DNA of 64,000 nucleotides from Candidatus Aminicenantales bacterium (GTDB taxonomy: Bacteria; Acidobacteriota; Aminicenantia; Aminicenantales; Saccharicenantaceae). The position numbers were made by a program. The stretch spans positions 2,733 through 66,732 of the forward strand of contig JBEKBS010000006.1 in assembly GCA_050015275.1 (NCBI GenBank), written 5' to 3'. How positions within the stretch are numbered: position 1 is the stretch's first letter; each line of letters opens with the position of its first letter. Below are positions 49,101 to 52,100 of this stretch, piece by piece.

Positions 49101-52100
49101 CGGGATGAACCTCTTGTATCCCAGGGCGATCGTCCCCCTGGCCCGGCCGAGGAGCGGAAAGCGGAACCCGCCGTAGGTCTGGTAAGAACGGGCGTTCCGC
49201 CATGACGACGCCGGGTCCAGAAAATCATAATCCGTGGCCCCGGCGGTCGCGAAAATCGAACTGCGGGAAAAGACGCGGTAATAGAACTCGAAGGCGGCGG
49301 TCCTCTCCCGGTGGTCCAAGGCGCGCGAGATCTCGTCCTCAGGGTCCGGGAGGCTTGCATTGTTGTATGCGTAATCTTCCAGGGACCCCGAGAGCCCGAT
49401 GGCCGTGCCGCGGGGCGTCTCGAAAAAGAGGTGGGCGCTCCAGCCTTTCCGGAGGTCTCTGACCGGCGTCCCGAGCTCGCTCGTGGCCGGCTGGAAATGC
49501 TCGAGAAAATGGTAATCGCCGGAAAGCGCCAGCCTGCGGAGGAGGAACAGCCGGACCGCGGGGACGAAACTGTTGACCAGCGTCCGGAGATCCTTCTCCT
49601 TGAGATAGAAGCTCCACTCCGGGTTCTCTGTGACCGAAACGAGGGCCGAGCTGCCGAGGAGCCAGTAGCCCTTGACTTCCGGGGAGAGCGTCGCCGTGTA
49701 ATCGGCGACGGCCGGGTCCTGCTTGTCCGCGTAATAGACGTTCGAATCGTAGCCGACGTTCGCGAGCCGGAAGGCCGGCAGGACCTTGAGCGGCCCGAGC
49801 TGGACCCCGGACTTCGCCCGGACCTCGTCGTACTCCTCCGCGAACGTCCGGTAGGTCTGGGCGGCCAGCCGTCCGGCCGAAGCGGCCAGGACGACGGCCA
49901 GGGCCAGGATCTCGTATCTTTTCATTCTGGTTCTTACGGCCGCGATCTAGCGGGCCGGTTCAGGAAAGGCTTCCGTCGCCGAGCGTATCTTTCATGGTCC
50001 GGAAGAATCTCATGAAGGAAAGCCGTTGGAGGAGGGCGAAGATCAGCCCGGAGTGCCAATCGAAATCGGCGGTGTCGCGGATGATCGGGATGATCCCGTC
50101 GGTCTGGGCCAGATGAAAGAGGCCTTCGACCTGGCCGTCGCTCAGGCGGGAGCACGTCCGCCGCGTGTAGTAGCCGACGAGGATCTCCCGTTGGATGGCC
50201 TTCCGCCACCGGGCCTCGTAGCCGGCCAGGGCCGCGGCCCCGAAGGACGACCTCTCGAAGCATTCCCGGACGGCCTCCGCCGCCAGATCGGCGCAGAGGA
50301 GTCCGTAGCTGATCCCGCCGCCGGTCGTCGTCTTGATCTGACCGGCCGCTTCCCCCACCGAGAGGACCCGGTCCCCGGTCGTCCGGGCCAGGAGACCCTG
50401 GGCGACGGCCTTCGTCCTGATCTCGGCCGCGCCGGGATTGCCGGCGGCCGGCGTGGGACTTTCGTCCAGGAGCTTCCGAAGAAGGGGCCTCGGGTCTTTC
50501 CTCGTCAGGAGGCCCACCCGGGCCCTGTCCCCGGCCGGGACAGACCAGGCGAAGGCGCCGGGGGCCACGCTCCGGCCGAAGTAGATCGTCGTCAGGTCCC
50601 GTCCGGCGATGGGGACCTCGACCTGGGCCCCCTTGAGAAAGGTCCGGGGAAAGGAGAGCCCGGCTTTTTTCTGGAGGCTGTGATCCACTCCGGAGGCGAT
50701 GACGGCCATGGCCGCGGTGTGGCGGACCGATTCCTGCCCGCTCGTCCTGACCGTCACCCGGACCCCGCCGGGCTCGACCGAGATGTCGTCGGCCCTGGAT
50801 CCGAGGCTGAGGACGGCCCCCGCGCGGACGGCGGAGGCCGCTAGTCCCGAGTCGAGCTTCTCCCTGTCCACGACACAGGCGAACGGCCGGGGATGACGGT
50901 ACGTCACGGCCGTACCGAACGGAGAGACGAGCCGGGCCTCCCGGATCTCCTGGATGACGGAGCCCGGGTTGAGCCCGAAGCTCGCGAAGACCTCTTTGCC
51001 GACGATCCCCGTGCAGACGACGTTCACGCCGACCCTGGCCTTTTTTTCGAGGACGAGGACGTCCAGCCCTTTCTCGGCCAGGCGTGCGGCCAGGCGAAGA
51101 CCGCTCGGCCCGCCGCCGATGACCAGCACGTCCTTCCGCTTTTCCGTCTTCAACGCACTCTTCTCCAAGCTCAGACCTTGTCCTCGCGGGACTCCCACTT
51201 GCCGCGGAACGTGATCCAGAACGAGAGAAAGATGAGCTCGAGGTCCAGCCAGAAGCTCATCTTCTTGATGTAGAAAAGGTCATAGCGGAATTTCCTCCGC
51301 CTCGGCGTCCCGCCCGGCAGGAAGACCTGAGCGAGGCCCGTCAATCCCGGCCGGACCTCGTGGCGCTCCCGGAAGCCGGCGATCGTCTCGATCGATCTCG
51401 CCGCCGGGTCCCCGCCGACCTCGAGCTCGTTCGGCCTCAGGGCCCGGGGGCCGACAAAACTCATGTCTCCCCTGAAAATGTTGAGAAGCTGGGGGAGCTC
51501 GTCCATGGCCGTGGCCCGCAGGATGCGGCCGACCCTCGTCACCCTGGGATCGTTCTCGGAGGCCTGGACGGGGCCCCGGTCCTTCTCGGCGTCCCGGACC
51601 ATCGACCGGAATTTGAGGGCCCTGAAGGTCCGGCCGCCGCGGCCCACGCGTTCCTGCGAATAAAAGACCGGGCCCCGGTCCTCGAGCCAGACGGTCAGGG
51701 CAATGACCGCCCAGAGCGGCGACGAGAGGAAAAGGCCCGCGGAGGAGAGAGCGAGGTCGAAAGGCCGCTTGAGAAAAAGGGCGCGGCGGGAGGAGTTCGG
51801 GCCTCGGGCGGGGACCCGCCCCTCGTCCAGACTCCTGGCCCTCCAGGCCGTCAGGGCCAGCGCCAGGAGGATCCCGGCGCAATCCACCGCCCAGTCGAAG
51901 GGGCTCCCGAAGCGGTGCGGGACAAAGGATTGGAGGAACTCATCGACGAACCCATAAACGATGGCGACGGCCGCGGCCCGGACAAGAGAGGCCGGGCTCC
52001 ATCTCGGCCCGCGCCCGCCCCGGAAGGCGCGATACAAGAGGAAGGCCATGAAACCGTAGGTGAAGAAGTGGCCGGATTTTCGGAAGATGACGTAGCCCAG

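Follow-up and report, generated by a model that had tools for sequence, protein, structure and literature searches.

A geranylgeranyl-reductase-family flavoprotein encoded beside priming phosphoglycosyltransferases in Aminicenantes and distant bacterial lineages, with a possible role in carrier-lipid reduction

The stretch of DNA analysed here (the window) comprises 64,000 nucleotides of contig JBEKBS010000006.1 (positions 2,733 to 66,732, forward strand; assembly GCA_050015275.1) from a Candidatus Aminicenantales bacterium. It contains a gene for a FAD-dependent reductase of the geranylgeranyl reductase (GGR) family, located in an exopolysaccharide (EPS) locus directly downstream of the gene for a priming phosphoglycosyltransferase (PGT). 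In distant phyla homologues of the reductase repeatedly adjoin enzymes that handle polyprenyl phosphates, which suggests that it may act on the lipid carrier of glycan synthesis.

The reductase gene and its locus

The reductase, the PGT and the other genes of the locus are as follows.

49960-51153, minus strand: GGR-family FAD-dependent reductase, predicted 397 amino acids (TIGR02032, match to 3oz2, AlphaFold2 model compared with Foldseek; start taken from homologue junctions)
51158-51166, minus strand: Shine-Dalgarno-like stretch GGAGAAGAG, 4 nucleotides 5' of TTG 51153 (direct sequence reading)
51171-52256, minus strand: priming PGT, predicted 361 amino acids, with an N-terminal VanZ membrane domain (PF04892, E 9e-9) and a Bac_transf catalytic domain (PF02397, E 1e-60; TIGR03025, 251.8 bits)
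48663-49925, minus strand: outer-membrane beta-barrel (BBP2_2; PF10082, E 6e-8), weakly EpsL-like (TIGR03014, E 0.005), 420 amino acids, with a signal-peptide-like N-terminus
47791-48639, minus strand: short outer-membrane polysaccharide export (OPX)/Wza-type protein, 282 amino acids, Poly_export and two SLBB domains (PF02563, PF10531, PF22461)
45385-47748, minus strand: polysaccharide co-polymerase (PCP), Wzc-like, with Wzz, GNVR and P-loop kinase domains (PF02706, PF13807, PF13614)
43914-45374, minus strand: Wzy_C membrane protein, O-antigen ligase/polymerase-like (PF04932, E 2.5e-19)
52274-53485, minus strand: family 4 glycosyltransferase (GT4) directly upstream of the PGT (PF13579, PF00534)
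53482-54690, minus strand: Wzy-type polymerase (Wzy_C; PF04932, E 2.4e-11)
54687-58071, minus strand: glycosyltransferase block of GT4 (54687-55952), GT4 (55949-57151) and a family 2 enzyme, GT2 (57148-58071), from Pfam matches
58894-60486, minus strand: Wzx/MOP-family flippase (PF01943, PF13440, PF01554), start uncertain and possibly at 60378

Read in the direction of transcription, from 60486 to 43914, the order is Wzx, GT2 and two GT4 enzymes, Wzy, a third GT4, the VanZ-PGT, the reductase, the beta-barrel, OPX, PCP and a second Wzy_C protein. The locus is therefore a complete Wzx/Wzy-dependent one, with the PGT, glycosyltransferases, Wzx, Wzy, PCP and OPX all encoded on the minus strand within 43914-60486. 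Beyond the second Wzy_C gene lie genes for a TPR protein, a CarboxypepD_reg protein, an NTP_transf_5 protein and an ABC-2 transporter.

An earlier note on this DNA had read the open reading frame 49960-51198 (minus strand; peptides DVLVIGGGPSG and CTGIVGKEVF) as a GGR-family flavoprotein gene lying in an EPS locus between a VanZ-PGT fusion and a beta-barrel gene. It placed the gene 17 nucleotides from the PGT gene if translated from TTG 51153 behind GGAGAAGAG, or overlapping it by 28 nucleotides if translated from GTG 51198. The frame, the peptides, the two spacings, both neighbours and the EPS setting are confirmed by the coordinates and domain matches above, and the family assignment by those described below.

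The PGT gene most likely extends over 51171-52256, ending in the TGA codon at 51173-51171, and would encode 361 residues, in line with the 361-362 residues of its orthologues. For the reductase, translation from TTG 51153 is favoured because the junction alignments of two related loci (L058 and L007) place an ATG at this position, each behind a similar purine-rich stretch; in L058 an in-frame stop codon lies just upstream of this ATG. TTG 51168 (402 residues) is a weaker alternative that was chosen by gene callers for three members of the subfamily (P0001, P0005 and P0007). GTG 51198 was rejected as a start, as no homologue supports it.

The stop codon of the PGT gene and TTG 51153 are separated by 17 nucleotides, and the reductase and beta-barrel genes by 34 nucleotides. 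The GC content at third codon positions (GC3) of the reductase gene is 0.86, matching that of the neighbouring genes, and is uniform along the genes of the locus. Between 47600 and 52500 four terminator-like sites were found against 4.0 expected, and the promoter/terminator scan of this interval showed no obvious break. Since terminator-like sites are at chance level and GC3 is uniform, the placement of the reductase gene is operon-like.

Two further observations concern the locus. The 282-residue OPX protein has no C-terminal outer-membrane helix domain, its partner being the separate 420-residue BBP2_2 beta-barrel (47791-49925, minus strand, for the two genes), and this combination resembles the 'OPX plus dedicated porin' arrangement of myxobacteria. 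The 'uncharacterised nucleotidyltransferase' (NTP_transf_5) and ABC/ABC-2 genes at 38481-41328 (minus strand) always trail the EPS locus in Aminicenantes relatives.

Family assignment and catalytic residues

The whole protein matches TIGR02032 (GG-red-SF) with 186.5 bits, above the curated cut-off of 158.8. All of the 19 cross-phylum homologues (19/19) match the same model best; next come the models for BchP/ChlP and for the archaeal lipid reductases, and all of these describe prenyl reductases. The best sequence match in the PDB is the GGR of Thermoplasma (TaGGR, 3oz2; E 2e-22, residues 7-349 aligned). The AlphaFold2 model (pLDDT 81.6, pTM 0.84) has the three-domain GGR fold, and Foldseek ranks 3oz2 (TM-score 0.80) and the SaGGR entries (TM-scores 0.75-0.79) above FixC (rank 8), halogenases and monooxygenases. 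The protein is a GGR-family flavoprotein.

The models for individual GGR-type enzymes are all missed by wide margins: the archaeal digeranylgeranylglycerophospholipid (DGGGPL) reductase equivalogues NF041080 (80.2 against a cut-off of 580 bits), NF041160 (87.1 against 780) and NF041385 (39.9 against 700); BchP/ChlP, TIGR02023 (103.6 against 343.3) and TIGR02028 (57.2 against 505.3); MenJ, NF045655 (37.7 against 700); and FixC-type PRK10015 (27.9 against 466). These scores support the view that the protein is not an orthologue of the chlorophyll-type, archaeal-lipid, MenJ or FixC enzymes. MenJ and the chlorophyll-type reductases share with the protein the superfamily and the FAD-dependent hydrogenation of specific isoprene units, and differ in these scores and in that quinone and chlorophyll genes are absent from the neighbourhood here.

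Public annotation pipelines name most members of the subfamily (P0001-P0120) 'digeranylgeranylglycerophospholipid reductase', the archaeal lipid enzyme, while the equivalogue cut-offs are missed by about 500-700 bits; this label is likely to be a systematic misannotation.

The hallmarks of GGRs are the GxGxxG, PxxYxWxFP, RxxFD and LxGD motifs and an essential cysteine, Cys47 in SaGGR, beside the isoalloxazine; the cysteine, RxxFD and YxWxFP elements are catalytic or position the flavin (2024 review, PMC10821996). In the Aminicenantales protein GxGxxG reads GGGPSG (G13-G18), with G13, G15 and G18 invariant in homologue alignment A1. C47 is invariant in both homologue alignments and pairs with the cysteine of VRCGEG in 3oz2. 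The RxxFD position reads R97-E-K-L-D101, RxxFD itself being present in most homologues, and PxxYxWxFP reads P198-G-A-F-A-W-S-V-P206 (Tyr to Phe, Phe to Val), aligned with PAGYIWVFP of 3oz2. C47, R97, D101, F201, W203 and P206 are all invariant in cross-phylum homologues of 35-49% identity. LxGD reads SVGE (Asp to Glu) across the subfamily, the loci of which were selected by a pattern containing GEAAGQ.

The subfamily is marked by C-[TAS]-G at the catalytic cysteine, APGxFxWxVP, VGEAAGQxKTTTGGG and a conserved C-terminal segment of about 60 residues. TaGGR (3oz2) and SaGGR (3atq) resemble it in the TIGR02032 match, the three-domain FAD fold (TM-scores 0.75-0.80), GxGxxG, the flavin-side cysteine, the RxxFD arginine and the aromatic wall, the last in a variant form. 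They differ in identity (19-24%), in reading GDAAxxxxPxTGGG where the subfamily has GEAAGQxKTTTGGG, and by the distinct C-terminal segment of the subfamily. The protein here, moreover, comes from a bacterium, and its gene is linked to that of a glycan-priming transferase rather than to ether-lipid synthesis.

A word-indexed protein search gave 686 matches, the best 120 of which are all at least 61% identical and 392-422 residues long. When the 50%-identity representatives were searched exhaustively, 577 clusters matched at E <= 1e-30 and 3048 at E <= 1e-10. Most of the 150 best representatives have about 370-420 residues, the exceptions being a few fragments and two with insertions, and most align through the C-terminal segment. 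No reductase-PGT fusion was found among them; the long representatives P0195 (494 residues) and P0258 (448 residues) have low-complexity insertions but lack any additional domain.

No transmembrane segment is predicted in the reductase (maximum Kyte-Doolittle window 1.37), which suggests a cytoplasmic or peripheral protein on the side of the membrane where the PGT active site lies. In the conserved C-terminus, neither amphipathic-helix nor hydrophobicity analysis gave a strong signal for a membrane helix; the highest hydrophobic moments fall in the Rossmann helix.

Two alternative functions bear on these matches. The first is electron transfer to or from the membrane quinone pool, as in FixC or the electron-transfer flavoprotein (ETF)-quinone oxidoreductases, for which FixC (7koe_C) is the second-best PDB sequence match (E 2.5e-12) as well as Foldseek rank 8. 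The PRK10015 and FixC models nevertheless give about 28 bits, where 466 would be required, neither the window nor the related loci have etfAB or fixX/ferredoxin genes near the reductase gene, and the GGR motifs are kept, so that this function is very improbable.

The second is that of a non-prenyl flavin oxidoreductase, monooxygenase or halogenase modifying a sugar, a nucleotide-sugar or a non-sugar substituent of the polysaccharide. Group-A monooxygenases and flavin-dependent halogenases have the same fold (Foldseek ranks 9-50), there are weak Pfam matches to FAD_binding_3 and Trp_halogenase and an NCBIfam match to QhpG, and tailoring enzymes are common in polysaccharide loci. The halogenase match (PF04820, 21.7 bits, E 1e-4) is made up without any single stretch passing alone, and the halogenase motif WxWxIP is absent, the equivalent position reading FAWSVP. 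By sequence as by structure, the best matches are all to prenyl reductases, and the GGR-specific cysteine and the F-x-W-x-x-P wall are invariant. Together with the gene neighbourhoods of distant homologues, described in the next section, this leaves a tailoring role improbable.

Gene neighbourhoods in Aminicenantes and in distant phyla

The gene neighbourhoods of the reductase were compared in 80 genome loci spanning at least seven clades. The nearest is that of a Candidatus Aminicenantes metagenome-assembled genome (MAG; L005), with 92% identity in the reductase. In every Aminicenantes relative with flanking sequence (60-92% identity) the order PGT, reductase, beta-barrel, OPX, PCP, Wzy_C is identical. 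A counterpart of the GT4 at 52274-53485, 55-75% identical, lies at the same position in relatives. By contrast, the glycosyltransferase block between Wzx and Wzy (54687-58071) varies in comparison with L001-L032, where one GT4 (GT4a) is only 28-33% identical or absent and one locus (L002) has a GT2-GT4 fusion. The comparison supports the view that in all Aminicenantes relatives the reductase is a constant component of this polysaccharide locus. The order by itself could be mere lineage synteny, and for this reason 46 distant loci, from a scan of GTDB species representatives and with homologues of 34-52% identity, were examined.

A Bac_transf PGT gene lies directly upstream of the reductase gene, on the same strand and at gaps of 17-152 nucleotides, in 17 of the 46 distant loci. 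These include loci from WOR-3 (L078, L080), TA06 (L073) and Eisenbacteria (L071), a deltaproteobacterial-labelled locus (L045), two labelled 'Clostridia' (L072, L079) and one from an unclassified MAG (L082). In three others a PGT is near the reductase and not directly upstream: one small gene away in L034, as a fragment in L056 and 403 nucleotides downstream in L084 (Gemmatimonadales). In two Aerophobetes loci (L062, L069) the gene directly upstream encodes instead a Glycos_transf_4 protein (WecA/MraY-type; PF00953, E 2e-30), which is non-homologous to Bac_transf, and a Glycos_transf_4 gene is also found nearby in L057. Two Gemmatimonadota loci (L068, L081) have OPX, PCP and epimerase genes downstream.

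In L063 (Dehalococcoidales) the stretch 5333-9432 encodes a DUF1616 protein, the reductase, a GlmU-like nucleotidyltransferase/hexapeptide protein and UppS (PF01255, E 3e-81). A tblastn search for UppS, with an E. coli query, of the window and all 84 loci gave a match in L063 only, and adjacency to a cis-prenyltransferase is thus not general.

In the WOR-3, TA06 and Aerophobetes-clade loci (including L072 and L079) the other genes nearby have housekeeping functions, encoding either a Lpd-like flavoprotein or RsmI-ThpR-RecA-AmiC. The conserved unit is therefore the pair of priming transferase and reductase and not the EPS locus. The earlier note had named occurrence of the gene outside EPS loci in relatives as evidence against carrier-lipid saturation. 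Such occurrence is indeed seen in WOR-3, TA06 and the Aerophobetes-like clade. The gene nevertheless stays beside a transferase there, either a PGT or one of WecA type, and the carrier-lipid idea is strengthened rather than weakened by this. The same loci bear on the tailoring role considered above, since they pair the gene with a priming transferase only, without other sugar-modifying genes; in L063 its companion is UppS.

A Lpd-like Pyr_redox_2 gene (about 463 residues) directly follows the reductase homologue in L073, L078, L080 and L082, and also in L054, L055, L057 and L070. Its product could be a partner that supplies reductant, or the association could be just local synteny.

In a neighbour-joining tree of the subfamily rooted on TaGGR, the PGT-adjacent members are scattered over most clades. 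A genome holds a handful of PGT genes among thousands. Direct adjacency to a PGT in about 40% of the distant loci, in at least six lineages, is therefore far beyond what chance would give, which is a judgement and not a computed statistic. All that Bac_transf, Glycos_transf_4 and UppS enzymes have in common is Z,E-polyprenyl (di)phosphate. No quinone, carotenoid or ether-lipid genes adjoin the reductase in any locus examined.

The glycan carrier lipid as a candidate substrate

Because homologues repeatedly adjoin polyprenyl-phosphate-handling enzymes across phyla, the carrier lipid is the substrate that we favour. We propose, with moderate confidence, that the reductase hydrogenates at least one C=C bond of the lipid used by the adjacent PGT, either the Z,E-polyprenyl (di)phosphate carrier itself or the carrier charged with its first sugar. 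The saturation of the carrier put forward in the earlier note is thus partly supported, the cross-phylum adjacency speaking for the carrier as substrate.

The hypothesis rests entirely on comparative genomics. The analysis shows the family membership, the catalytic residues, the fold, the operon-like placement and the pairing with PGT genes across phyla, and from these are inferred the substrate, the number and position of the units that would be reduced, the timing relative to the PGT step and the electron donor. In the proposed mechanism the flavin would be reduced by a donor, which may be NAD(P)H, ferredoxin or another flavoprotein. An isoprene unit would be held against the isoalloxazine by the wall F201-x-W203-x-x-P206, with Cys47 next to the flavin as in the archaeal GGRs, and its double bond would then take up a hydride and a proton. 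The VanZ-PGT would load the reduced carrier with the first sugar and the GT4 and GT2 enzymes would extend the glycan, which Wzx would flip, Wzy polymerise and the PCP, OPX and beta-barrel machinery export.

Several points weigh against this proposal. The choice of the carrier as substrate is drawn entirely from gene neighbourhood, and about a dozen distant loci have no glycan or polyprenyl gene in the available flank, several of these contigs being short. Among them are loci labelled Stahlbacteria (L051, L053, L055, L059) and their unlabelled clade-mates (L052, L057), L065 and L066, and two from Dehalococcoidia (L075, L083). The loci were recovered by two subfamily-specific peptide patterns, which makes the sample non-random and the invariance of GEAAGQ in part circular. 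The LxGD and YxWxFP elements deviate from the GGR consensus, to SVGE and FxWxVP, and no ferredoxin or ETF gene is adjacent to the reductase. In polyisoprenol-specificity work on PglC-type pathways, the monotopic PGTs studied so far reportedly prefer an unsaturated alpha-isoprene, which argues against alpha-reduction before the PGT step.

The loci without a nearby glycan gene would also fit a prenyl reductase acting on some other isoprenoid, such as the menaquinone side chain (as MenJ does), a carotenoid or hydrocarbon, or an ether or isoprenoid membrane lipid, with proximity to the PGT as a historical accident. Members of the GGR family act on many isoprenoids (PMC10821996), and the MenJ and archaeal lipid-reductase models match weakly but significantly. 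These matches are nevertheless far under the equivalogue cut-offs of MenJ, the DGGGPL reductases and BchP/ChlP, none of the genes expected of quinone, carotenoid or ether-lipid pathways stands beside the reductase, and chance is hard to credit for three unrelated polyprenyl-phosphate-handling families adjoining it in at least six lineages. We regard another isoprenoid as unlikely, and the carrier lipid as the better candidate.

Which double bond of the carrier would be reduced cannot be read from the sequence, because characterised enzymes of the GGR family reduce different units. HepR is described as reducing omega and E units (PMC10821996). Archaeal GGR reduces the omega and internal units of dolichyl phosphate, and alpha-saturation persisted in a Haloferax GGR mutant (PMC10821996, PMC5088576). 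Reduction of the alpha-isoprene, which would give the 'alpha-saturated, dolichol-like' lipid suggested by the earlier note, therefore appears doubtful. Only if the alpha-isoprene were the target would the eukaryotic polyprenol reductase SRD5A3/DFG10 be a functional analogue; it is an unrelated, polytopic, NADPH-dependent enzyme of the steroid-5-alpha-reductase type, whereas the reductase described here is a flavoprotein of Rossmann fold in which no transmembrane segment is predicted. Eukaryotic SRD5A3-type enzymes are integral membrane proteins.

In bacteria the polyprenyl phosphates that carry glycans are generally described as fully unsaturated, saturation being an archaeal and eukaryotic trait (PMC5088576). 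The remark in the earlier note that such saturation is barely documented in bacteria holds with the qualification that mycobacterial HepR was described in 2022. According to the review, which cites Abe et al. 2022 for this work (PMC10821996), this mycobacterial GGR paralogue acts as a reductase of Z,E-mixed heptaprenyl diphosphate. As described there, it is the closest functional precedent, a bacterial GGR paralogue saturating a Z,E-mixed polyprenyl diphosphate of the glycosyl-carrier lipid class. It differs in its C35 substrate and its occurrence in Actinobacteria, whereas the subfamily here spans several phyla, is paired with PGTs and has a cis-prenyltransferase nearby in L063 only, the UppS gene there being the one indirect pointer to a HepR-type activity.

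The GGR family and its chemistry are thus already known, and HepR provides a precedent for a GGR paralogue that saturates a Z,E-polyprenyl diphosphate in bacteria. In the searchable open-access literature no description of a pairing of GGR with PGT or exopolysaccharide genes was found. Within that literature three things appear to be new: a GGR subfamily that is both distinct and sizeable; the persistent coupling of this subfamily to priming PGTs of both superfamilies in several uncultured phyla; and its fixed slot in the Aminicenantes Wzx/Wzy locus, with the PGT on one side and the export genes on the other.

A wider and more tentative proposal is that Aminicenantes, WOR-3, TA06, Eisenbacteria, Aerophobetes-like bacteria, Gemmatimonadota and some Dehalococcoidia may use a partly saturated, possibly alpha-saturated, carrier. 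The reductase would be locked to the priming transferase, and the carrier would form a private pool for envelope glycans, apart from the undecaprenyl phosphate of peptidoglycan synthesis. If true, carrier-lipid tailoring would be much wider in bacteria than has been thought, the known bacterial exception being mycobacterial, and such a pool would contradict the textbook view of fully unsaturated bacterial carriers. It could also be an answer to how cells keep peptidoglycan and exopolysaccharide synthesis from competing for a carrier that is scarce and shared. The reductase and PGT offer a testable enzyme pair from lineages beyond culture.

Elsewhere in the window, a second FAD enzyme is encoded at 16554-18074 (minus strand); it is a 506-residue protein of the Amino_oxidase family, phytoene-desaturase/protoporphyrinogen-oxidase-like and possibly isoprenoid-related. 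Two candidates for cyclic di-GMP (c-di-GMP) signalling lie a few kilobases from the EPS locus, a GAF-GGDEF-PilZ protein (29308-31371, plus strand) and an HD_5 (HD-GYP-like) protein (32844-33941, plus strand), and control of EPS production by c-di-GMP through them is possible. Four open reading frames have coding-like GC3 and no Pfam match (31380-32663, 36158-37030 and 37786-38364, minus strand; 18253-20324, plus strand). A type IV pilus minor-pilin cluster occupies 4245-10699 (plus strand), its last gene encoding a 1284-residue PilY1/FG-GAP repeat protein.

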